Positions 3,318 to 47,826 of a DNA stretch of 64,000 nucleotides are shown in pieces. Made by a program: the position numbers and the translations under genes. Each line of letters starts with the position of its first letter. Position 1 is the stretch's first letter. This DNA is from an uncultured Chloroflexia bacterium (lineage in GTDB: Bacteria; Chloroflexota; Dehalococcoidia; DSTF01; JACRBR01), in contig CAVUOT010000009.1 of assembly GCA_963743185.1 (NCBI GenBank), positions 72,421 to 136,420 of the forward strand, written 5' to 3'. The notes under the pieces are model-generated. The model saw only the letters and a list, made by a program, of their open reading frames with translations. It searched no databases and was not told the DNA's origin.

Positions 3318-3586
3318 TGCGTCTCCTCATTGCGCTGCGGAGCTCCAATCCGGGACGCCGCGGACGTGATCTGCGGGGAGCGCCACCCGGGCGCTAACGT
3401 CGGGGAGCAGCTCGCCAGACCTGCCGGCGCGGCGCGGGCGGCCGGACTCAAAGCATATCGCCCAGCATGGGAAACTCCCGATTCTTCAGTCCGGTTATTG
3501 CTTTCGAAACATGTCCCGGCCTGTCCGCGTGCGATGATAGCAGCGGAGGCACAAGATTGAAGCTCAGGAAGAACCTCGGCGCAAAG

Positions 3587-3802
3587 ATGACGGCTCTCAT
3601 CGCCAGCCTGCTGACGCTGGGCGGCGGGTGGGCGCTCGTACACCAGAATCCGCCCGCCAACGCGGACAACGCGACGACGAGCGCAGCACCAGCCGCGTCC
3701 ACGCCCGCGGCGGGCACGACGGGAACACGGAGCGCCGCGCCGAAGCCGCAGACAGTGCAGCCGAAGACGGTGAAGAGGCACGTCCGGACGCACGTATCCT
3801 GA
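3587..3802 (+). CDS. small exported protein with N-terminal signal or transmembrane segment and Ala/Thr/Pro-rich tail
   Basis: MTALIASLLTLGGGWALV... followed by a low-complexity tail. Its stop lies 1 nt before the apbE start, so it is probably the first gene of the apbE operon. Confidence 0.4.
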   Translation: MTALIASLLTLGGGWALVHQNPPANADNATTSAAPAASTPAAGTTGTRSAAPKPQTVQPKTVKRHVRTHVS

Positions 3803-3803
3803 C

Positions 3804-4721
3804 ATGATCACGACGACCTTCCGCTCGATGGGTGGCACGGTTGAAGTCCAACTCGTGGGCGGGACGCCCGCCGATGCGGGTCGAATCGAGTCGCTGTTCG
3901 CCGAGCACGAACGAACCCTGAGCCGCTTTATGCCTGACAGCGAGCTCTGCGCGCTGAACAACGCCGCGCCCTCCCGCTTCGAGGCTTCGCCGCTACTCTT
4001 CGACGCCGTCAGCGAGGCAATCGGCTGGGCGTGCGTGACGGGCGGCATTTTCGACCCGACGGTGATCGACGCACTGGAGGCGAGCGGCTACGACCGCACG
4101 TTCGACGACATCGCCGGCGGAGCGGCACGGGCCGTGGCGGAACGACCCAGGCCCAGAACCAAGCAGGACCCGTGGCGGGCGATTGAGCTCGACGTGGAAC
4201 AGAACGTCATTGTGATGCCCGCGGGCATGCGTCTGGACCTGGGCGGGATCGGCAAAGGCTTCACCGTAGACCGAGCAATCGCGGCGCTCGGCCCCGGCAC
4301 CAACGCGATGGTGAACGCGTCGGGCGACCTGTACGCCGCGGGCGACGGGCCGGACGGCGACGGGTGGTACGTCGGCGTGCAGGATCCGTTCGCGCTTGAC
4401 CTCGACCTCGTGGTGCTGAACATCAACGACTGCGGCGTCGCAACGTCGGGCTCAATCAAGCGGAACTGGACGATGAGCGACACTCGCTATCACCACCTGA
4501 TCGACCCGCGCGAACAGCGCAGCTCGACGAGCGAGCTGCTGACGGTGACGGTGGTCGCGCCGACGGCCACGCAGGCCGATGTGCTGGCGAAGACCGCCTT
4601 CATACTGGGACCGAGCGCCGGACTACGCGTAATCGAACGCTTCGACGGGGCGGAGTGCGTTGCGGTCACGGCCGCCGGAGATGTCCTCACGTCGAGCGGC
4701 ATGGCGGAGCATTACGCGTGA
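3804..4721 (+). CDS. apbE: FAD:protein FMN transferase (ApbE family)
   Basis: 305-aa ORF with ApbE hallmarks (GGTVEVQLVG...LDLGGIGKGFTVDRA...ATSGSIKRNW...HHLIDPR). Confidence 0.85.
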   Translation: MITTTFRSMGGTVEVQLVGGTPADAGRIESLFAEHERTLSRFMPDSELCALNNAAPSRFEASPLLFDAVSEAIGWACVTGGIFDPTVIDALEASGYDRTFDDIAGGAARAVAERPRPRTKQDPWRAIELDVEQNVIVMPAGMRLDLGGIGKGFTVDRAIAALGPGTNAMVNASGDLYAAGDGPDGDGWYVGVQDPFALDLDLVVLNINDCGVATSGSIKRNWTMSDTRYHHLIDPREQRSSTSELLTVTVVAPTATQADVLAKTAFILGPSAGLRVIERFDGAECVAVTAAGDVLTSSGMAEHYA

Positions 4722-14480: not shown

Positions 14481-14549
14481 GCTGGACTTCAAAGCCTCCG
14501 TTGTGATACATTGGTTATGAAGAGTTAGCAATTAACCTGGAGCGCTGAG

Positions 14550-17024
<2,475 letters not shown>

Positions 17025-22779: not shown

Positions 22780-22853
22780 TGCCGGATCGTTCAATGGTAG
22801 GACAGCGGCCTTTGAAGCCGTGAATCTAGGTTCGAATCCTAGTCCGGCAGCCA
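22780..22853 (+). tRNA. tRNA-Gln (anticodon UUG)
   Basis: TGCCGGA-TC-GTTC-AATGGTA-GGAC-A-GCGGC-CTTTGAA-GCCGT-GAAT-CTAGG-TTCGAAT-CCTAG-TCCGGCA-G-CCA folds as a cloverleaf with 7-bp acceptor, D, anticodon (cuUUGaa) and T-psi-C (GGTTCGAATCC) arms. The CCA end is encoded. Confidence 0.85.
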
Positions 22854-40502: not shown

Positions 40503-41648
40503 ATGAAACGACTCGTCTCAACATTCACGACAGGCCTGCTCGGCGTGCTCGCCGGCGCCGCACTCGTCGGCGGCATCGTCTGGACGCGCGACGACGGCGG
40601 CAGCTCGAAGGCGGCGTCGACGGTCGCGGCGACGACGTCGAGCCAGACGACCACCGACACCAGCACATCGCTCAGCGGCGCCCCGCTCGCGAACACCGAG
40701 GACTTCACCGCGCTCTACAACGCGGTGCGCCCATCCATCGTCCGGATCACGACCGGGCAGACATCCACGGACCCCTTCTCCGGCGGTCAGCAGGGAGGCC
40801 TCGGGTCCGGCATCGTGCTGGACAAGGATGGCCACATCCTCACGAACTACCACGTCGTCAAGGGTTTTGACACCGTCTCCGTGACGTTCTCCGACGGCAC
40901 GATGGCGAGCGCGAAGGTCGTCGGCACCGACCCCGGCAACGACACCGCCGTCGTCAAGACCGATGCCGATGCCAGCGTCCTCAAGCCGGCCACCCTCGGC
41001 GATTCGAGCCAGGTGAAGGTCGGGCAGGCCGTCGCCGCGATCGGCAACCCGTTCGGCCTCGACGGCACGTTCACAACCGGCGTCATCAGCGGGCTCGAGC
41101 GGACGCTGCCCTCGAGCAGCGACGGCCGGCCGATCCGGGGGCTGCTGCAGACCGACGCGGCCGTCAACCCCGGCAACTCCGGCGGCGCCCTCATCAACAG
41201 CAAGGGCGAGGTCATCGGCATCAACACCGCCATCGAGAACCCGGGCGGCAACTCGTTCGCCGGCATCGCCTACGCCGTGCCGATCAACACGCCGAAGCGC
41301 TACCTCACGCAGCTCACGTCGGGTTCGACGATCACGCACGCGCGGCTCGGCATCTCCGGCAAGACGCTTTCGCCGGGCGACCTCAAGCAGCTCGGCATCG
41401 ACCACGGCGTGGCCGTCGTGACCGTCGAACGCGGCAGCGGCGCCGACAAGGCGGGCCTGAAGTCGTCGGCGAACGGCACCGGCGACGTGATCGTCGAGAT
41501 CGACGGCAACGCGATGAAATCGTTCGACAACGTCGCGGACTATATCGACACGAAAGCCGTCGGCGACCAGGTGAAGATCAAGGTCCACCGCGACGGCAAG
41601 GACATCGACATCACCGCGACGCTGATGTCGTGGGACACCTCGGCCTGA
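40503..41648 (+). CDS. HtrA/DegP-family trypsin-like serine protease with C-terminal PDZ domain
   Basis: N-terminal TM or signal segment. Catalytic triad context: TNYHVV (His), DTAVV (Asp), GNSGGAL (Ser). PDZ-like tail: GVAVVTVERGSGADKAGLK. Confidence 0.85.
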   Translation: MKRLVSTFTTGLLGVLAGAALVGGIVWTRDDGGSSKAASTVAATTSSQTTTDTSTSLSGAPLANTEDFTALYNAVRPSIVRITTGQTSTDPFSGGQQGGLGSGIVLDKDGHILTNYHVVKGFDTVSVTFSDGTMASAKVVGTDPGNDTAVVKTDADASVLKPATLGDSSQVKVGQAVAAIGNPFGLDGTFTTGVISGLERTLPSSSDGRPIRGLLQTDAAVNPGNSGGALINSKGEVIGINTAIENPGGNSFAGIAYAVPINTPKRYLTQLTSGSTITHARLGISGKTLSPGDLKQLGIDHGVAVVTVERGSGADKAGLKSSANGTGDVIVEIDGNAMKSFDNVADYIDTKAVGDQVKIKVHRDGKDIDITATLMSWDTSA

Positions 41649-42353
41649 TCGGCCTCGCAGAACAGAGACAGACAGCAGAGGGACGAGAACAGACACAGAG
41701 CTCAGACGAAGACGGTGGCTCCTCCGCGGGACGTGATGGGATGTGGTGCGGCGCGGAGTGGAGAGGGTCGCAGAAATGCGACCCTCTCTTCGTGTGCGAG
41801 ATCGCGCCTGTCGAGCGTGGCGCGATGCGCGCTCAATCTCACGCCGGCCGAGTGGCCCTGCTCGTCATCGCACGATCCGCGAACGCGTGAGACGTCGACA
41901 GAATAAGCAGACTACGAGAGCCATCCCACGAACACGCACGATGAGCGAGATGACCGAAGGAAGGTGAGCGACAGACCCCACATGGCAACGCGGCGGCTGC
42001 GTAAATCGCCATGATTGCGAGGTACGAGATGATGCCGCCGCTATGAGGGACGAATCTCGATGCGACGGCCATTCGACAATCTCCACGCTCCTCAAGCACG
42101 AAGACGACGCCGAATCTGACTGCGACTGCGGCTCTGAGAACATACCATGAATCGCCAGTGATCCTCCGAGCACCAATCTCGCGGGAATGGAGGTCAGGCC
42201 AAGCGCGTCGCCCGCCTCCTGCGCCGCCCGGTGCACAGCCTGTGGGTTTGCGTGATGCGCCAATCGCTCCGCCCCGCACGCCGCGGCCCGCCGCCCACGA
42301 AGAACGACCGCCACGCGGCGGTCGTTATAGCTTGCATTCGGGCGACGGGCGCG

Positions 42354-42641
42354 TCAGTCGGCGGACGGGAGGACCTTCGGCTGCATCAGCTCCATCGGCG
42401 CGCCGTTGTAGCGCAGGTCGCAGGCGCCGGGCTTGATGCAGAGCGCTTCGACGGCGCCGTCGGCGGAGGCGTAGCGCTTGCCGAGCACGACCGCGCCGTC
42501 CGAGCCGCCGGTCGCCGGCGGACCGTCTTCCTTGATGTTCAGCGCCGTCTCCCCGTCCTGCAGCGTGCCGTCGGCACCCTTCGTGACGATGAGCTCCGCC
42601 CCGCTCGCTGCGATGTATCGCTTGCCGACTTGTGCTGGCAT
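42354..42641 (-). CDS. small hypothetical protein with two GKRY-containing half repeats
   Basis: 95-aa ORF MPAQVGKRYIAASGAELIVTKGADGTLQDGE...VLGKRYASADGAVEAL..., immediately downstream of the complex-III-like operon. Confidence 0.35.
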   Translation of the reverse strand: MPAQVGKRYIAASGAELIVTKGADGTLQDGETALNIKEDGPPATGGSDGAVVLGKRYASADGAVEALCIKPGACDLRYNGAPMELMQPKVLPSAD

Positions 42642-42710
42642 GGTCGCCTCCGTGGTCCGTTGAGATCGGTGCAGGACGCGTTTTCGGTCAACGCGTCCTG
42701 CGCTGGCAGT

Positions 42711-43994
42711 CTAGGTTCGAAAATCTCGCTGCGTCAAGGCGTGCGGCTCGCGGCAGGCGTCGTGCCCGCGGCAGGCGTCGTGCCCGCGGCAGGCGTCGTG
42801 CCGGCAGCAGGCGTCGTGCCGGCAGCTGGCGTCGTGTCCGCGGCCGGCGTCGTGCCCGCGGCCGGGCGCTGCGGGTGCGGCGCCGGCGGCTACCGTCGTC
42901 AGGACGCCCTCCATCGTCGTCGGGTGTACGTCGCAGCGGTAGTAGTAGTCGCCGGCGTCGAGCGGCCCGAACTTCAGCGTCTGCGTCACCGGTCCCGACT
43001 CGAAGGCGGTCTGCGCGACGTCGGCGCCGGTCGCATCCTTGCCCTTGAACACGTGGATGTTGTGCGGGATGCCCGCGTCCTTGTTGTCGAACGTGATCGT
43101 CAGCTCCTGGCCCGCCACTCCGAGCAGCGTCGCCGTGTCGAAGGCAAGACCCTGCGCGGTGAGCTTGAGGTCAGTCGATGCCGCCACCGGACCGGACGGC
43201 GCCGCGGCGGCGGACGGCAGGTTCTGGCCGCAGGCCGGCTGCGTTACGGGCGGCGGGTCCGGCGGGACCGGCGGCACCCATACGGCGGCGCCTTGCTGGT
43301 GCTCGGCGGCTTTCGTCGTGCCCAGGTTGCGCTCCACGGTGACGCTCTGCAGGTTCTTCTCCGGGCTGGCCGTGACCAGCATCAGCTCGCCGTCGATTTC
43401 GATGCGCGAACCCTTGCCGAGCGAACCGAGAGTCGACAGGTAGACCGTCGTAGCCGATGCGTCCAGCGGCCGCGCAAGCTTGAGCCCGGCGCTGGCGTAG
43501 CCGGCGTAGTGGTGCTTCTCGTCGCCGTAGATGGCGTATTCCTTCGCCGTGTCCCAGGCCGTACCCTCCGTAATCATCGTGGCGAGCTGCCGGATCTGCT
43601 CGTCGTTGAGCGTCCCGCCCTGCGTCTGTCCCCACGTCGGCATCGACTTGCCAATGCGGCCGCACGTGATCGTGTTGACGATGAGCTTGAACTTCAACAA
43701 CTTGTCCTGCTCGTTGACCTTTCCCGTCTGCGGGTCTATGCCCTGAAGGTCGGGCCGGTTGAGCGGCAGTGCCAGCTTCAGGCGGTTCGCGACGGCGCCG
43801 CCCTCACCACTGTCGCCGTGGCACGTCGCGCAGTTCTGCGAGAACAGGAACGCGCCGCGGTCGGTGGTCTTGAGCAGATCGCTGGCCTTCGCGTCGGAGG
43901 CACGGCTCGGATCCCACATCGTGTACGCGCCGGTCGCCAGGACGGCGATGAAGACGAGCGCCACCATGAGGTTGATCTGCTTTGCGGTGTTCAT
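42711..43994 (-). CDS. membrane-anchored monoheme cytochrome c fused to a cupredoxin (plastocyanin/auracyanin-like) domain, with C-terminal tandem 6-codon repeats
   Basis: N-terminal TM helix (LMVALVFIAVLATGAY); heme motif CATCH with a distal Met (GKSMPTW). Type-1 copper ligands are present (GIPHNIHVF...YYYRCDVHPTTMEG). The tail is a run of 18-nt repeats. Confidence 0.75.
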   Translation of the reverse strand: MNTAKQINLMVALVFIAVLATGAYTMWDPSRASDAKASDLLKTTDRGAFLFSQNCATCHGDSGEGGAVANRLKLALPLNRPDLQGIDPQTGKVNEQDKLLKFKLIVNTITCGRIGKSMPTWGQTQGGTLNDEQIRQLATMITEGTAWDTAKEYAIYGDEKHHYAGYASAGLKLARPLDASATTVYLSTLGSLGKGSRIEIDGELMLVTASPEKNLQSVTVERNLGTTKAAEHQQGAAVWVPPVPPDPPPVTQPACGQNLPSAAAAPSGPVAASTDLKLTAQGLAFDTATLLGVAGQELTITFDNKDAGIPHNIHVFKGKDATGADVAQTAFESGPVTQTLKFGPLDAGDYYYRCDVHPTTMEGVLTTVAAGAAPAAPGRGHDAGRGHDASCRHDACCRHDACRGHDACRGHDACREPHALTQRDFRT

Positions 43995-44012
43995 GCCTGC
44001 CCTTTTTGGCGC

Positions 44013-44720
44013 CTAACCTGGAAGGATCGCCCGCGATGGGTTGGTCTCGTTGCCCAGTGTGATCTTGCCGGTGTTCACGGTCATCTTCCCGCCCGCGATC
44101 GTAAGCGCGAACGTATCCATCGAGCGCGGCGCCGGGCCGAACACGCGGACGCCCGCGTCGCTGTACGTCGATCCGTGGCACGGGCAGAGGAACCAGCCCG
44201 CGTACGTCTCTCCGTTGCGCGGATCTTCGCGCGAGAAGTCTGGCCGCCATGGGACCGTGCATCCCAGGTGGGGGCACTTGTGGTAAAGCGCAATGATCGA
44301 CCCTTCCTGCGCGCCCGGGTTCCGCCGCACCTGATCGCCGGTCAGCATCACAACCCACGCCTTCGCGTCCAGGTTGTGCAGCCTTTGGCCGGGCGCCCCC
44401 TTGAGAGCGTCCACGGTGCCGACGAACACCGTGCCGCCGAACCCGGTGACGTTGCGCGGGTAGAGGCTGTTGATGATTGTCGTCACGATGCCCAGGAGCA
44501 TCGCGCCCATGCCGGCCCAGAATCCGATAAGCAGCACCTTGCGGCGCGATACCTGCGGCAGCTGGAACGCCGCGGGCGCGGGCTGCACCACCACGATCGA
44601 GGGCCCACCAGCCGCAGCCAGCGCGCCGCCGCCAGGTGCAGCCTTCACAACCGCCGCTTCGGCCGGGGCCTTTGGCGCCTTCGGCGCCGGCTTCGCTGCC
44701 TCCGTCTCTTCGTCAGGCAT
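44013..44720 (-). CDS. Rieske [2Fe-2S] subunit of a cytochrome bc/b6f-type complex
   Basis: ATG at 44720 after GGAGCGGAG. A TM helix is followed by Rieske box I CPHLGC and box II CPCHGS. Confidence 0.85.
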   Translation of the reverse strand: MPDEETEAAKPAPKAPKAPAEAAVVKAAPGGGALAAAGGPSIVVVQPAPAAFQLPQVSRRKVLLIGFWAGMGAMLLGIVTTIINSLYPRNVTGFGGTVFVGTVDALKGAPGQRLHNLDAKAWVVMLTGDQVRRNPGAQEGSIIALYHKCPHLGCTVPWRPDFSREDPRNGETYAGWFLCPCHGSTYSDAGVRVFGPAPRSMDTFALTIAGGKMTVNTGKITLGNETNPSRAILPG

Positions 44721-45834
44721 GGGCTCCGCTCCCTGGGTCGTAGATCCCGTATCGCAGGTCGCCTGGAGCGATCTGCCGCATGATGCCGGGATCTTCGTCG
44801 AGATTCGGTACGTGCGATGGCGGCACCAGCTGCTGGCCGCGGCCGCGGAATGCCGCGCCGATAATCGTGAGCGCGAAGTAGAACATGATGAAGCCGGTGA
44901 AGAGCGCGATCCATGCGTCACGCATCGTGTTCAGCCAGCCAAGCTTCCGCAGGATGAACAACATCGCGCCCGCGAAGAAGAAGATCGTAACGATCGGCAC
45001 GACGAACTCCGCCATGATCGCGGGGATGTTGAAATCGGAGTTGTACCAGTACACGTGGCGCAGCCAGCCGGGCATCCACCCGGGCTCGCCCCAGTACCAG
45101 AGCCACGTGCCGTTCAACGGAACCGGCACCTCCTGGAAGTCCTTCGGCCAGTCGAGGTAGCCGTCATGGTGGCCGGAGCCCGGTTGGAACGGGAGGGGGA
45201 TGCTCCAGTGCCACGAATCCCGCATAGCGAGGCGGTTCCTGAGGAAGACGAACGTCCAGACGGCCTGGAAAAGGTCGCCGATCGGGCCCCATGAATCGAA
45301 GGGGTGCCGGTCGCCGATCCATCTCGTCTTCCCGTCCATGAACCCGAACGTGACGGGCGCCTGCTGGTAGATCCGGACGTGCGCGCCATCGTCCCAGAGG
45401 ATGCACCAGGGGATGACAAACGCCGAGTAGATGGCGCTGAAGATGGTGATCCTCACGGCGTTCGCCGTGCCGAACCACACTCCCTGACCGTCGTTGCTGC
45501 GATCGGTGTACGGGATCGCCATCAGCACGATCAGCGCCACCGTGGGCACGGTAACGCCGGCCAGGCCCTTGTCCATGTGCAGGAGCAGCTCCTGCAGGTT
45601 CATCAGGTACCACGGCGCCTTCGAGGGGTTCGGGGTGATGTTGGCGTTCGCGCGGTCGAGCAGCGGCGCGTTGACGATCACCGACAGCGCGACGAACGTC
45701 AGCGTGAACACTGTCGCGGCGATGAACTCGATGAAGACGAGATCCGGCCAGACCAGCAGTTCCTGGTCGCGTTCGCGCTTCTGGCGCACTGTTTCCTTGT
45801 CGCCAGCGGCCGTCGTCCGGGTCGCTATCGCCAT
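44713..45834 (-). CDS. cytochrome b C-terminal half (subunit-IV-like, PEWY-type motif) with long C-terminal extension
   Basis: APWYLMNLQELLLH resembles the PEWY motif of the b6f subunit IV / cytochrome b C-terminus. Multiple TM helices. 373 aa. Confidence 0.75.
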   Translation of the reverse strand: MAIATRTTAAGDKETVRQKRERDQELLVWPDLVFIEFIAATVFTLTFVALSVIVNAPLLDRANANITPNPSKAPWYLMNLQELLLHMDKGLAGVTVPTVALIVLMAIPYTDRSNDGQGVWFGTANAVRITIFSAIYSAFVIPWCILWDDGAHVRIYQQAPVTFGFMDGKTRWIGDRHPFDSWGPIGDLFQAVWTFVFLRNRLAMRDSWHWSIPLPFQPGSGHHDGYLDWPKDFQEVPVPLNGTWLWYWGEPGWMPGWLRHVYWYNSDFNIPAIMAEFVVPIVTIFFFAGAMLFILRKLGWLNTMRDAWIALFTGFIMFYFALTIIGAAFRGRGQQLVPPSHVPNLDEDPGIMRQIAPGDLRYGIYDPGSGAHA

Positions 45835-45848
45835 GGGCTCCTAACCTT

Positions 45849-46604
45849 CTAGAGGGGGCGCGCCAGGCCGCCATCACGTCGGATGCGCCAGAAGTGCACC
45901 GACATGAATATCGCGGCAAGCAGCGGTAAGCCGATCACGTGGAGCGTGTAGAAGCGGATCAGCGCGTTGGGGCCCACCTCAAACCCGCCGATGAGCACGA
46001 ACCGCGTCTGCCCGCCGAGCATGGGCGCCGAGCCGGCGATGTTCGTGCCGACGGTGATCGCCCAGAGAGCGAGCTGGTCCCACGGCAGAAGGTAGCCGGT
46101 GAACGAGAGCAGCAGCGTGAGTACGAGCAAAATCACGCCAACCACCCAGTTGAACTCGCGCGGCGGCTTGTAAGCGCCCATGTAGAACACGCGCATCATG
46201 TGCAGCAGCACCGTGATCACCATGGCATGCGCCATCCAGCGATGCAGGTTGCGGATGAGCTGGCCGAAACGGACGTTCGTCTGCAGCGCGGCCATGTCGC
46301 TGTAGGCGCGGTCCACCGACGGCACGTAGTAGAACATCAGCATGACGCCGGTGACGGTAAGGCCGAGGAACATGAAGAAGCTCAGCCCGCCCAGGCAATA
46401 CGTGTGCGTGACCTTGACGTGCGTCTTGTGGATTCGGGTCGGATGCAGGTGCAGGAAGACGCTCGTGGCGATGGCGAGCATCTGGTTCCGGGGCGTGTTG
46501 GGGTAGCCGGAGCGGAACACGGACCGCCAGATGTAGTTGTGGAACAGCTTGTCGTAGATGAAATCGCCGAGACCGGGTCCCCTTGGCTGTTCCGAGACGG
46601 CCAT
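45849..46604 (-). CDS. cytochrome b6-like (N-terminal half of cytochrome b, heme-binding four-helix bundle)
   Basis: Paired His residues in helices B and D ([20 protein letters not shown]; [20 protein letters not shown]). 251 aa. GGAGGAAGG ribosome-binding site. Confidence 0.85.
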
Positions 46605-46640
46605 CCGCTACCTTCCTCCGTTATCGAGACCACCACTGGC

Positions 46641-46797
46641 CAGCGACGACCATGATACCAAACGAGATTGCAAGCGTTGCGGCGACGAGTATGAGCTCGC
46701 CGGCATCGGATGTGGATTGCGGGGGCCAGTGGACGAGATCTTTGAAATAGTTATAGAAGTCCGAGACGGCGGGTGCGCCAAGCAGCAACCGTGCCAT
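46641..46797 (-). CDS. unannotated small membrane protein (52 aa) leading the complex-III-like operon
   Basis: AGGAG-cctctcgtc-ATG then MARLLLGAPAVSDFYNYFKDLVHWPPQSTSDAGELILVAATLAISFGIMVVAGQWWSR*. One C-terminal TM helix. Its stop lies 37 nt before the cytochrome b6 start. Not in the ORF track. Confidence 0.45.
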
Positions 46798-47100
46798 GAC
46801 GAGAGGCTCCTGACAGCGCTCGAACCATTACAGCCGACCTCGGGCGCCACTGAATCCATTTGATGCGGGAATCTAACATCGACCCCTACCAGTGTCAAGC
46901 CGAGACGGGCGGCGTCCGAGGCTCGCCACCTCGCGTCGGGCGCCCTTCCGCGAGTGCGATCGGCAGCGCTGATACCAGCCGGTGTGCCGGCACGGCCGAC
47001 GAAGGACCTCAATCCCACCACTGTTCGCGGAAGACAACACTCGCCCCTGGAGCAACCCGACGCGCTTCGCCCCCCGCCGGTGCGGTGATAGGATGCCGCG

Positions 47101-47826
47101 ATGCGCATCGAGATCGTGGCCGACGAGCAGGCGCTGGCCGCACGCGCCGCGGACGTCATCTGCGACGGTGTGCGGGCGAAGCCCGCGGCGCTGCTCGGCC
47201 TGCCAACAGGCGCGACGCCGGTCCGCACCTACGCCGAGCTTGAACGGCGCGTCGCGGCCGGCGCGGCTGACTTCTCACGGGCGAGCGTGTACGCCATCGA
47301 CGAATTCGCCGGGCGCCACGCGCACGACGCCCGGCACGAACAGCGTCTTCTACCGCCAGCACTTGAACATCGGCCAGCACGCCCTCCATTGTCCGAACCC
47401 GTCTGCGCACGACGCGGACGAGCACATCCGTGCGTTTGCCGACGCGATCCGGCGCGCGGGCGGGCTCGACCTGTGTGTGCTGGGCATCGGCATCAACGGG
47501 CACATCGCGTTCAACGAGCCGGGATCCAGCCGTGACTCGCGGGCGCGCGTCGTCGACCTGACGCCGGCGTCCCGCGAGGCGCACGCCGCCGCGTTCGGGT
47601 CGCTCGACGCCGTGCCGGAGCGCGGAATGACGCTGGGCGTCGCTGATCTTCTGGAAGCGCGGTCGATCCTTGTCCTCGCGTCAGGCGCACAGAAGGCCTC
47701 GATCGTGCAGCGGGCGATCGAGGGCCGGAGACGGCGGCGGTGCCGGCATCGTGGTTGCGGTCGCACGCGGACGTGACGTGGCTGCTGGACGAGGCGGCGG
47801 CCGCAGAGCTGCGCCGGCACGCGTGA
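47101..47826 (+). CDS. nagB: glucosamine-6-phosphate deaminase, two apparent frameshifts (about 47330 and about 47730)
   Basis: MRIEIVADEQALAARAADVI...LGLPTGATPVRTY...VYAIDEF is in frame A. LDLCVLGIGINGHIAFNEPGSS...ILVLASGAQKASIVQRAIEG is in frame B. The C-terminal ETAAVPASWLRSHADVTWLLDEAAAAELRRHA* is in frame C. Confidence 0.75.

Follow-up and report, generated by a model that had tools for sequence, protein, structure and literature searches.

Gene content and order of the operon

Six co-oriented open reading frames (ORFs) occupy positions 42354-46797 on the minus strand of the window, the whole stretch of 64 kb that was analysed (Table 1). In 5' to 3' order, their products are a membrane protein of 58 aa, cytochrome b6, a long subunit IV, the Rieske protein, a membrane-anchored fusion of a cytochrome c with a cupredoxin (cytochrome c::cupredoxin) and a protein of 95 aa. 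Gaps of 16, 14, -8 and 18 nt separate the first five genes, and a promoter-like site precedes the first by about 73 nt. A preliminary description of the sequence had proposed a complex-III-like operon with a split cytochrome b and a Rieske protein, and Pfam matches and motifs bear this out. The surroundings of the operon in the window are housekeeping genes, and no terminal oxidase gene is present within the 64 kb.

Table 1. Features of the operon and its flanks, in the direction of transcription.
Feature	Position	Strand	Basis and remarks
Promoter-like site TTGACA-17-TAGATT	46870..46898	-	Consensus scan, 10/12 matches, TG-extended; pattern match alone
58-aa protein, candidate small subunit	46621..46797	-	ORF; one transmembrane helix, residues 35-53 (hydropathy)
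Cytochrome b6-like subunit, 251 aa	45849..46604	-	Pfam Cytochrome_B 6.9e-45
Long subunit IV, 373 aa	44713..45834	-	Pfam Cytochrom_B_C 2.4e-4
Rieske iron-sulfur protein, 235 aa	44013..44720	-	Pfam Rieske 1.1e-8; NCBIfam b6f iron-sulfur subunit 4e-14
Cytochrome c::cupredoxin fusion	42733..43994 (family's frame)	-	Pfam, homologues, AF2
Fusion: transmembrane anchor	43914-43988	-	
Fusion: class-I cytochrome c domain	about 43527-43877	-	CxxCH at 43818-43832
Fusion: beta-rich middle domain	about 43275-43502	-	
Fusion: Pro-rich linker	43173-43274	-	
Fusion: cupredoxin domain	42891-43172	-	
CCCGGCC run holding the one frame-shifting extra base	42860..42866	-	DNA alignment with L001
Imperfect 18-nt tandem array, 7.0 copies	42737..42862	-	TRF score 180, 89% matches
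Promoter-like site, perhaps the 95-aa gene's own	42708-42737	-	Consensus scan
Hairpin, perfect 10-bp core, no U-tract	42672..42700	-	Fold -23.8 kcal/mol, z -4.96
95-aa protein, two GKRY modules	42354..42641	-	Fused Cys-depleted tandem of desulforedoxin-like domains

Is this arrangement peculiar to one genome? The full six-gene order occurs in five Chloroflexota/Dehalococcoidia contigs, and L001 carries the genes from cytochrome b6 through the 95-aa protein before the contig ends; overall, the order is kept in L001-L005, L017 and L018. It is found again in independent Chloroflexota MAGs, with identity of the fusion down to ~50%, and the Rieske gene is still followed by the fusion at 37% identity. 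The preliminary description had called the architecture unusual and held that routine annotation of the same fusion and gene order in close relatives would count against it. Both do recur in relatives, so this objection partly holds: the architecture is unusual by the standard of textbook complexes but, since the fusion is found in at least 189 clusters and the order recurs in Chloroflexota MAGs, it is ordinary within the lineage. The JGI label for the fusion is 'mono/diheme cytochrome c family protein/plastocyanin'. The operon is a real respiratory operon of complex III type that is common to many uncultured Chloroflexota.

The cytochrome b subunits and the Rieske protein

The product of the first gene does contain a transmembrane helix, as originally described, but is 58 rather than 52 aa long. 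Its gene lies directly upstream of cytochrome b6 in L002-L005, L017 and L018. The protein matched no Pfam or NCBIfam family and is not recognisable as PetG, L, M or N.

The top PDB match of the second product is cytochrome b6 (1q90_B, 3.6e-49). In the alignment to this chain, all four His ligands of hemes bL and bH are kept, and the Cys of a TYCLGG motif coincides with b6 Cys35, the attachment site of heme cn. This split cytochrome b of the b6 type carries two b hemes and probably heme cn as well. The b6 and subunit IV portions are encoded by separate genes; a split cytochrome b and the heme cn Cys, both of them features of a b6f-type complex, are found together. The same subunit scores 294.4 bits against the NCBIfam model cytb_ExtP (cutoff 290).

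Subunit IV, which has 2589 homologues, resembles PetD and the C-terminal part of cytochrome b in residues 28-134, to which its PDB matches are confined. After residue 134 there is a Trp-rich insert of ~120 aa, followed by two extra transmembrane helices. Hydropathy gives five hydrophobic segments, and an AF2 model of moderate confidence (pLDDT 67) places helices at residues 16-53, 89-105, 124-149, 270-298 and 304-328. The PetD-like part bears the Qo motif, which had been described as PEWY-type; the actual motif is APWY (A73-P74-W75-Y76), invariant across 39 homologues. APWY is a recognised variant of the Qo motif, and the APWY clade already lists Chloroflexi beside delta-proteobacterial and Planctomycete sequences (PMC4122944). 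Judging by the motif, the split cytochrome b and the affinity to the NCBIfam ExtP model, the complex would belong in this clade.

As called mechanically, the Rieske ORF (44013-44921, 302 aa) runs into subunit IV. Comparison with the homologues in L001 and L018, which have 235 aa, puts the start at the ATG at 44720; the protein then also has 235 aa, and the overlap shrinks to 8 nt. Its sequence includes the twin-arginine motif SRRKVLL, a single transmembrane helix and the boxes CPHLGC and CPCHGSTY, in agreement with the boxes noted earlier (CPHLGC and CPCHGS). Export by the Tat pathway is predicted. The S-Y signature of Rieske proteins, here CPCH-G-S-T-Y, has been equated with a potential above 260 mV (PMC4122944), and its presence predicts a high-potential centre.

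A cytochrome c fused to a cupredoxin

The fifth gene had been read as a membrane-anchored monoheme cytochrome c joined to a type-1 copper domain in a single ORF. This reading is confirmed by Pfam, by the ligands and by the number of homologues. When the fusion is compared with cytochrome c and cupredoxin profiles, both match inside one ORF (Cytochrome_CBB3, 4.1e-8; Copper-bind, 5.8e-5). The c-type domain is a class-I cytochrome c (PF13442, PF00034) with a single CxxCH motif, CATCH (C55-H59), and is thus monoheme. The copper domain combines a cupredoxin fold with the His/Cys/His/Met ligands of a type-1 blue copper site. All the ligands of the fusion (C55, C58, H59, M118, H311, C354, H357 and M361) are invariant in 57 homologues. 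The copper-ligand loop is C-x2-H-x3-M; the corresponding loops of auracyanin and azurin are longer.

Auracyanin is the top structural match of the AF2 model (pLDDT 84.2), and the similarity of the N-terminus to actinobacterial QcrC is weak (7.6e-7; NCBIfam score 28.7 bits, cutoff 200). Clustered at 90% identity, the homologues from JGI, ENA, NCBI and Logan, with ~97% query coverage, form at least 189 groups; clustering at 50% identity gives 84 clusters with E<=1e-30. No paper describing the cytochrome c::cupredoxin fusion was found in the published literature. On the evidence of its homologues, the fusion is genuine and not unique to the window.

The C-terminal tail and the downstream region

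The 3' end of the fusion gene consists of 18-nt repeats, which had been described as about seven perfect units. There are seven, but they are not perfect, with only two of the seven units identical. Three-frame translation reproduces both of the readings given in the preliminary description. In the frame of the family, the array encodes an Ala/Thr/Pro tail (AAGTTP...AASRTP) that ends at a TGA codon at 42733-42735, while the ORF as assembled (42711-43994) reads GRGHDA... and stops at a TAG at 42711. In a DNA alignment with L001, the window is 19 nt longer, that is, by one 18-nt unit and 1 nt; the TGA stop and the downstream sequence are common to both.

Between the fusion and the 95-aa gene there is a hairpin, the core of which is lengthened to 12 pairs in the predicted fold; it is kept in L001 save for one loop base. 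L001-L005 and L018 likewise have the 95-aa gene 3' of the fusion. In its place, L017 has separate genes for two proteins with CxxC...CC, 43 and 47 aa long, and one of them matches PF06397.

Electron transfer through the complex

How might electrons leave the complex? No further c-type cytochrome is encoded within the operon, and the natural reading of the fusion is therefore that of a built-in electron acceptor, as the preliminary description had proposed. Electrons would pass from quinol to the Rieske centre, to heme c, to the tethered auracyanin-like copper centre and on to a terminal oxidase, a direction that we infer. The class-I cytochrome c domain would stand in for cytochrome c1 or f. 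The copper domain, set behind the small beta domain and the Pro-rich linker, might serve as a tethered mobile carrier, and its most likely partner would be a heme-copper oxidase whose gene lies elsewhere in the genome. Such tethering would suit a cell without a closed periplasm, in analogy to the second heme domain of the actinobacterial diheme QcrC. The fusion would end in a flexible, low-complexity Ala/Thr/Pro tail. In non-phototrophic Chloroflexi, bc complexes together with A-family oxidases form the standard aerobic chain (Ward et al. 2018, PMC5826079). The region probably encodes a Rieske/cytochrome b quinol oxidoreductase of a Chloroflexota type, a complex III analogue with an exit from heme c to copper and an Ala/Thr/Pro tail.

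Alternative readings

The window contains indel errors, with at least four in conserved genes besides the one at the repeats: a clpC-like gene is broken across three frames and, compared with the intact gene of L018, a nagB-like gene carries one surplus G at ~47311 and lacks a base at ~47725. In principle, such errors could merge or split genes, so that the fusion would be an artefact of assembly or gene calling. This is extremely improbable, given that over 100 full-length homologues, taken from assemblies and sources independent of one another, share the architecture, that a conserved linker with an invariant C255-G256-Q257 connects the two halves and that the ORF runs uninterrupted for 377 aa ahead of the tail. 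A second possibility is that the extra base at the repeats is real and that this strain makes a His/Cys/Asp-rich tail of GRGHDA/CRHDAC repeats with a role in metal binding, such as holding copper with which to load the cupredoxin. His/Cys-rich tails are known on some metalloprotein partners, the assembled ORF stays open across the repeats and stops just 22 nt past the stop of the family, and GC3 taken alone slightly prefers the assembled frame (0.98 vs 0.80). However, the tails of all 20 inspected homologues are Ala/Thr/Pro-rich or absent, most of them ending in ATP or PTP, and the closest homologue (88% identity) has an Ala/Thr/Pro tail. Codon log-odds likewise separate the frames by ~11.6 bits (+0.8 for Ala/Thr/Pro, -10.8 as assembled), and Cys and His make up only 0.6% and 1.8% of the genome's proteins. 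The off-frame of L001 is also His-rich (62.5% identity to the His/Cys tail of the window), which indicates that the His/Cys sequence arises incidentally from Ala-Thr-Pro codons; it would be the +1 shadow of these GC-rich codons. A metal-binding tail, raised as one option in the preliminary description, is thus very unlikely, and a conserved tail of this kind is rejected. Since the clpC-like and nagB-like genes also have 1-nt indels, the extra base at about 42860-42866 is most probably an assembly error and not a true mutation. Judged from homologues, alignment and codon usage, the reading frame of the family is the Ala/Thr/Pro one, and the question of frame, previously left undecided, is settled.

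The second issue is direction. The complex might run in reverse, as an entry point at which the copper and heme domains take electrons from a periplasmic donor and pass them via the Rieske centre to the quinone pool. APWY has been called characteristic of reverse-running complexes, with the Geobacter p-cresol cluster as the cited case (PMC4122944), and the cytochrome b scores as ExtP-like, ExtP being part of a Geobacter metal-reduction cluster. However, the link between APWY and reverse direction is itself only a proposal (PMC4122944), neither a dehydrogenase gene nor one for a lithotrophic donor accompanies the operon in the window, L017 or L018, and the neighbours are housekeeping genes. The standard combination of bc complexes and A-family oxidases in non-phototrophic Chloroflexi (PMC5826079) also speaks for quinol oxidation. 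Reverse operation is unlikely, though less so than a metal-binding tail.

Significance of the forward reading

If quinol oxidation is the function, does the complex represent a class of its own? It may form a separate class of Rieske/cytochrome b complexes, so far undescribed in biochemical terms and widespread in uncultured Chloroflexota, with heme c and type-1 copper in one membrane-anchored polypeptide; this is quite possible, if somewhat short of probable. Its lineage-specific parts are the Trp-rich extracytoplasmic domain and two helices of subunit IV, an invariant Cys111-Cys255 pair, the 58-aa subunit and the linked desulforedoxin-derived protein. Such a class would imply a carrier-free, possibly supercomplex-type connection to the terminal oxidase. 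It would show how monoderm Chloroflexota, which are very abundant and mostly uncultured in soil and the subsurface, couple the oxidation of quinol to oxygen with no soluble carrier in between. The operon is a target for purification and cryo-EM and for deciding between forward and reverse operation of the APWY Qo site. For annotation, a false lead is removed with the His/Cys 'metal-binding tail', the window is flagged as an indel-prone assembly, and automatic annotation may give the cytochrome b a wrong name, 'selenite/tellurite reduction ExtP'.

Comparison with known systems

Rieske/cytochrome b complexes have a constant core, and their high-potential subunit is exchanged between lineages; an exit through heme c and blue copper would be one more solution. 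The APWY clade (Kao & Hunte 2014, PMC4122944) shares the split cytochrome b and APWY in the subunit IV part, and includes Chloroflexi among its phyla. The Geobacter ExtO/ExtP/ExtQ module, a member of this clade, is similar in that the cytochrome b passes the ExtP model. However, the Ext module of Geobacter is accompanied by multiheme cytochromes, a porin and a rhodanese (PMC5877670), whereas the complex described here is paired with a monoheme cytochrome c::cupredoxin. No extHIJKLMNOPQS-type partners of these kinds were found in the operon or its flanks. ExtQ, at 134 aa, is shorter than the 373-aa subunit IV, which has an additional domain and two additional helices and reaches only 42.6 bits against the ExtQ model (cutoff 150). 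With partner genes absent and the ExtQ score below cutoff, membership in ExtP/ExtQ (NF040969/NF040970) is rejected and the name ExtP is not transferable.

The cytochrome b6f complex of cyanobacteria and chloroplasts shares the split b6 and subunit IV, the heme cn Cys, the four His and a cupredoxin acceptor, which in b6f is plastocyanin. It differs in that the operon has a class-I cytochrome c instead of cytochrome f and a 58-aa protein without a family instead of PetG/L/M/N, the cupredoxin is fused and not soluble, the motif is APWY and not PEWY, and subunit IV is much longer. The actinobacterial bcc complex with its diheme QcrC and the Bacillus bc complex with its subunit IV-cytochrome c fusion share with the operon a monoderm arrangement that does without a soluble carrier, the c subunit having a second redox domain of its own. 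In contrast to the two CxxCH motifs of diheme QcrC, the fusion has one; its second centre is type-1 copper and not heme, and its cytochrome b is split and b6-like, unlike the long QcrB of actinobacteria.

Copper carriers are also familiar from other systems. The auracyanins of Chloroflexus and Roseiflexus, from the same phylum, are membrane-tethered blue copper carriers, but they stand alone and serve Alternative Complex III. Fusion to cytochrome c and the Rieske/cytochrome b operon setting rule out an auracyanin proper here. In archaeal Rieske/cytochrome b supercomplexes, a copper protein, the sulfocyanin SoxE, likewise mediates electron exit (PMC4122944), although as a separate subunit without heme c. 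An enzyme-tethered tandem of cytochrome c and cupredoxin is known from four-domain NirK (PDB 6the) and from Nir genes of Chloroflexi (PMC8756737); there the tandem supplies a nitrite reductase core, whereas the fusion described here sits with a quinol oxidase.

Gene Organization

Between positions 42354 and 46797 the minus strand carries six open reading frames (ORFs) arranged head to tail (Table), and the operon sketched in the preliminary description has proved real, with four small details corrected. The first ORF, for example, encodes 58 residues and not 52. Among the first five genes the spacings are 16, 14, -8, and 18 nt, while the 95-aa gene is preceded by a spacer of 91 nt; upstream of the first gene there is a good match to a sigma-70-like site. 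Mechanical ORF calling gives a Rieske protein of 302 aa that starts at a GTG at 44921 and overlaps subunit IV; because the homologues at two relatives' loci, L001 and L018, are 235 aa long, the start was placed at the ATG at 44720. Neither the 58-aa nor the 95-aa protein matched any family in Pfam or NCBIfam, and an Rfam search of the window returned a single tRNA and nothing in the operon region.

Table. Features of the operon and of the surrounding window.
Feature	Position	Strand	Basis
Single-helix membrane protein, 58 aa	46621-46797	-	ORF
Cytochrome b6-like, 251 aa	45849-46604	-	Pfam Cytochrome_B, 6.9e-45
Subunit IV-like, 373 aa	44713-45834	-	Pfam Cytochrom_B_C, 2.4e-4
Subunit IV residues 135-373	44713-45430	-	
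Rieske protein, 235 aa	44013-44720	-	Pfam Rieske, 1.1e-8
Cytochrome c::cupredoxin fusion, 427 aa as assembled	42711-43994	-	Pfam
Cys111, ITCGR in cytochrome c domain	43662-43664	-	Invariant in 57 homologues
Cys255, PACGQ in linker	43230-43232	-	Invariant in 57 homologues
18-nt repeat array	42737-42862		TRF
CCCGGCC, in or beside which the extra base lies	42860-42866		DNA alignment
TGA stop of the family's frame	42733-42735		DNA alignment
TTGACG-18-TAGACT, promoter-like	42708-42737	-	Pattern match
Hairpin	42672-42700	-	-23.8 kcal/mol, z -4.96
GKRY-repeat protein, 95 aa	42354-42641	-	ORF
Stretch downstream of operon	41650-42353		
Sigma-70-like site	46870-46898		Pattern match
clpC/clpB-like chaperone gene	14529-17024	+	Pfam domains
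tRNA	22780-22850		Rfam
Glucosamine_iso (nagB-like) gene	47101-47776	+	
Phage_capsid-family ORF, 295 aa	52832-53719	+	HK97-fold family

Core Subunits

The operon core belongs to the Rieske/cytochrome b superfamily and has all the cofactor-binding residues of such a core. The closest solved structures to the cytochrome b6-like protein are the b6 subunits of b6f complexes (1q90_B, 3.6e-49), and alignment to 1q90_B shows that the four heme-ligand histidines and the cysteine of FYC(I/L)GG are kept. In b6f this cysteine carries heme cn. The same protein scores 294.4 bits against the NCBIfam equivalog for Geobacter ExtP, just over the cutoff of 290. Since no Ext partner is present, the name "selenite/tellurite reduction operon b-type cytochrome ExtP" is likely to be mis-applied to this gene by automatic annotation.

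In subunit IV, likeness to PetD and the C-terminal part of cytochrome b is confined to residues 28-134. The Qo motif, first read as PEWY-type, is of the APWY kind: K-A-P-W-Y is invariant in 39 homologues. Beyond the third helix, hydropathy and the AF2 model place a Trp-rich stretch about 120 residues long, followed by two more transmembrane helices; residues 135-373 have no match in Pfam, NCBIfam, or the PDB. The family of such long-form subunits numbers 2589 matches, mostly named "hypothetical". The Rieske protein has a twin-arginine motif (SRRKVLL), one helix, and CPCH-G-S-T-Y; the S-Y signature in Rieske proteins goes with a potential above 260 mV (PMC4122944).

The Cytochrome c::Cupredoxin Fusion

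Are the cytochrome c and the cupredoxin encoded by one gene? A single ORF matches both Cytochrome_CBB3/Cytochrom_C (4.1e-8, 2.6e-7) and Cupredoxin_1/Copper-bind (2.4e-5, 5.8e-5) in Pfam, which bears out the fusion that had been proposed. In the AF2 model, built from 57 sequences (pLDDT 84.2), residues 3-27 form a transmembrane helix and the cytochrome c domain extends to about residue 156; next come a beta-rich domain (about 165-240) and a Pro-rich linker (241-274) that leads to the cupredoxin (275-368). Both the heme c residues (C55, C58, H59, M118) and the type-1 copper residues (H311, C354, H357, M361) are invariant in 57 homologues. So are two cysteines outside these sites, C111 and C255, both of which fall in low-pLDDT loops of the model; a disulfide tether between them is one possibility, and another is that C255 is the relic lipobox of a once-separate lipoprotein cupredoxin.

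The middle domain matches no Pfam or NCBIfam family. A sub-threshold EFP_N/KOW match among relatives of the c subunit hints that it could be an SH3-like barrel. These relatives (P0104, P0258, P0264, P0278, and P0266) vary in architecture: one combines cytochrome c with two cupredoxins, and there are versions that have repeated middle domains but lack a cupredoxin; in forms of 690-770 aa, cytochrome c is joined to several matched stretches with no cupredoxin match. A further related protein contains five cupredoxin domains.

Tail Repeats and Reading Frame

The preliminary description read the C-terminal tail, in the assembled frame, as a His/Cys-rich and possibly metal-binding repeat encoded by perfect 18-nt units, with the frame in doubt. 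The array comprises 7.0 imperfect copies (89% matches, score 180 by TRF), only two units being identical. As assembled, the fusion ends in VAAGAAPAAPGRGHDAGRGHDASCRHDACCRHDACRGHDACRGHDACREPHALTQRDFRT before the stop; shifted by one base, translation gives AAGTTPAADTTPAAGTTPAAGTTPAAGTTPAAGTTPAASRTP and a stop. The peptide AAPAAPAAGTTPAA belongs to the Ala/Thr/Pro frame and GRGHDA to the His/Cys frame.

Several lines of evidence favor the Ala/Thr/Pro frame. The closest relative of the fusion, P0001 from a JGI metagenome (88% identical), has the C-terminus AAPAAPATGTTPAADATPAAGTTPAASTTPAAGATPAASATP. Tails of Ala, Thr, Pro, Gly, and Ser, nearly always with an ATP or PTP end, occur in 18 of the 20 homologues inspected, and the other two end directly after the cupredoxin. 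Aligned with L001, the contig that encodes P0001, the window has 19 extra nucleotides at the array start, that is, one 18-nt unit plus one base, while the TGA and the next 100 nt are nearly identical. Codon-usage log-odds, trained on 15 window genes, put the Ala/Thr/Pro frame at +0.8 bits, the His/Cys frame at -10.8, and the third frame at -39.4; GC3 was dropped as a discriminator, both candidate frames being GC3-rich. Cys and His make up 0.6% and 1.8% of the proteins in the window's genome. The corresponding off-frame of L001 is also His-rich (62.5% identity to the window's His-rich tail), and the "metal-binding" repeat is therefore a shadow of GC-rich Ala-Thr-Pro codons. On the homologue tails, the 19-nt difference, and the codon log-odds, the metal-binding tail was rejected.

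Is the extra base an error or a mutation? An assembly error is very probable. The domains of the clpC-like gene are spread over three frames (Clp_N and the start of AAA; AAA and AAA_lid_9; UVR, AAA_2, and D2-small), a pattern that takes two or more single-base indels and points to an assembly prone to them. The nagB-like gene is divided between two frames, with an extra G in a G-run near 47311 and one base missing near 47725 relative to the intact 241-aa gene at the syntenic locus L018. A real frameshift, which would leave the organism itself with the assembled tail, is unlikely. Programmed frameshifting or phase variation was set aside: slippage would keep the frame because the repeat unit is 18 nt, the extra base is placed at the array's edge, and there are other indels in the assembly. 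Whether error or mutation, the whole cupredoxin domain lies upstream of the frame shift. Another long-read-type frameshift is found in the Nanopore-style MAG MFD02416.bin.1.78 (L004), where the match to the cytochrome b6 homologue (3340-4093) is split into two pieces that overlap but differ in frame.

Distribution and Neighborhood

The protein search found at least 189 relatives of the fusion, with 84 clusters at E<=1e-30 when clustered at 50%; wherever a source is named, it is a Chloroflexota or Dehalococcoidia MAG. Five contigs have all six genes in this order, namely L002 and L003, both from Dehalococcoidia MAGs, together with L004, L005, and L018. L001 runs from cytochrome b6 through the 95-aa gene to its contig end, and L017 has the layout of the window except that two small genes replace the 95-aa gene. 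Over these seven loci the identity of the fusion falls from 88% to about 50%, while cytochrome b6 is 83-97% identical among L001-L005; the Rieske gene still precedes the fusion at 37% identity. The genome scan matched exact peptide words taken from the query and so reached only close relatives. The fusion and gene order are thus confirmed, but the arrangement is recurrent in Chloroflexota MAGs and not unique.

The EamA, nagB-like, thiE-like, and luciferase-like genes flank the operon in both the window and L018. The rest of the window is housekeeping chromosome (aconitase, S1, argininosuccinate lyase, ClpC), and no terminal oxidase gene was found in its 64 kb. A Phage_capsid-family ORF amid the housekeeping genes may encode an encapsulin shell protein or be a prophage remnant. 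A second contig of the MAG that carries the L005 operon (L010; WY5.bin150, JAKAMA010000048.1) has genes for a Rieske-like protein and a cupredoxin together with a cytochrome b6 of 33% identity, an indication that a single organism can carry two or more Rieske/cytochrome b modules that have copper partners.

The 95-aa gene always follows the Rieske/cytochrome b operon. The two small genes of L017 (11270-11554; 43 and 47 aa) encode GKRYQCTKC...ACCGQPM and GKRFHCETC...ECCGVPMQLQQPKVLPSAD; both modules have all CxxC...CC cysteines intact, and one matches Desulfoferrod_N. In the window's clade these two desulforedoxin-like modules are fused in tandem as the 95-aa protein and have lost the CxxC...CC iron ligands. 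Between the fusion gene and the 95-aa gene there is a hairpin whose 10-bp core is perfectly paired, with no U-tract, and upstream of the hairpin a promoter-like site overlaps the family's stop; both are kept in L001 except for one hairpin loop base. The ~700 nt downstream of the operon are lower in G+C (~0.61), with no ORF of coding-type GC3 and no Rfam match, and 41640-42360 has no similarity by blastn or tblastx to any relatives' locus fetched.

Proposed Electron Flow

The operon encodes a single c-type cytochrome, which has a membrane anchor and is covalently linked, in one polypeptide, to a type-1 copper domain. In the mechanism that we propose, quinol, presumably menaquinol, would be oxidized at the APWY-type Qo site. 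One electron would pass via the b hemes and the other from the Rieske center to heme c, the equivalent of c1/f, and thence to the tethered copper domain, which would swing on the Pro-rich linker to deliver it to a terminal oxidase. Forward operation is judged reasonably likely. The main functional rival is reverse operation, as has been proposed for APWY complexes; however, the operon in the window has no linked donor enzyme, and the usual aerobic chain of non-phototrophic Chloroflexi pairs a bc complex with an A-family oxidase (PMC5826079).

Comparison with Known Systems

Full-text searches turned up no account of a Chloroflexota bc complex with a cytochrome c::cupredoxin subunit, although an earlier mention may exist because subscription journals are poorly covered, and there was nothing relevant in Dibrova 2017 or Tsuji 2024; the existing database label is "cytochrome c family protein/plastocyanin". 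The fusion-bearing complex is therefore classed as an uncharacterized variant, common in its lineage, and the tail puzzle as an artefact. Of the original interpretation, the fusion within a Rieske/cytochrome b operon stands, while the His/Cys tail does not. A tentative reading, with chances a little short of even, is that the complex has a distinct type of exit module, carrier-free and running from heme c to copper, along with accessory parts specific to the lineage.

Like b6f, the operon has a split cytochrome b and the heme cn cysteine, but it does not encode a b6f complex, because cytochrome f and the Pet small subunits are absent. Neither is it an Ext module (Geobacter ExtO/ExtP/ExtQ), as it has no Ext partners, nor a bcc complex, given its single heme c. 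Its core fits the APWY clade of Kao and Hunte, which already includes Chloroflexi (PMC4122944). The copper domain is similar in fold to auracyanin, yet is not a stand-alone ACIII partner. The proposed exit from heme c to tethered copper would find parallels in the diheme QcrC of Actinobacteria, in the sulfocyanin subunit of archaeal SoxM complexes (PMC4122944), and in the tethered heme/cupredoxin domains of nitrite reductases.
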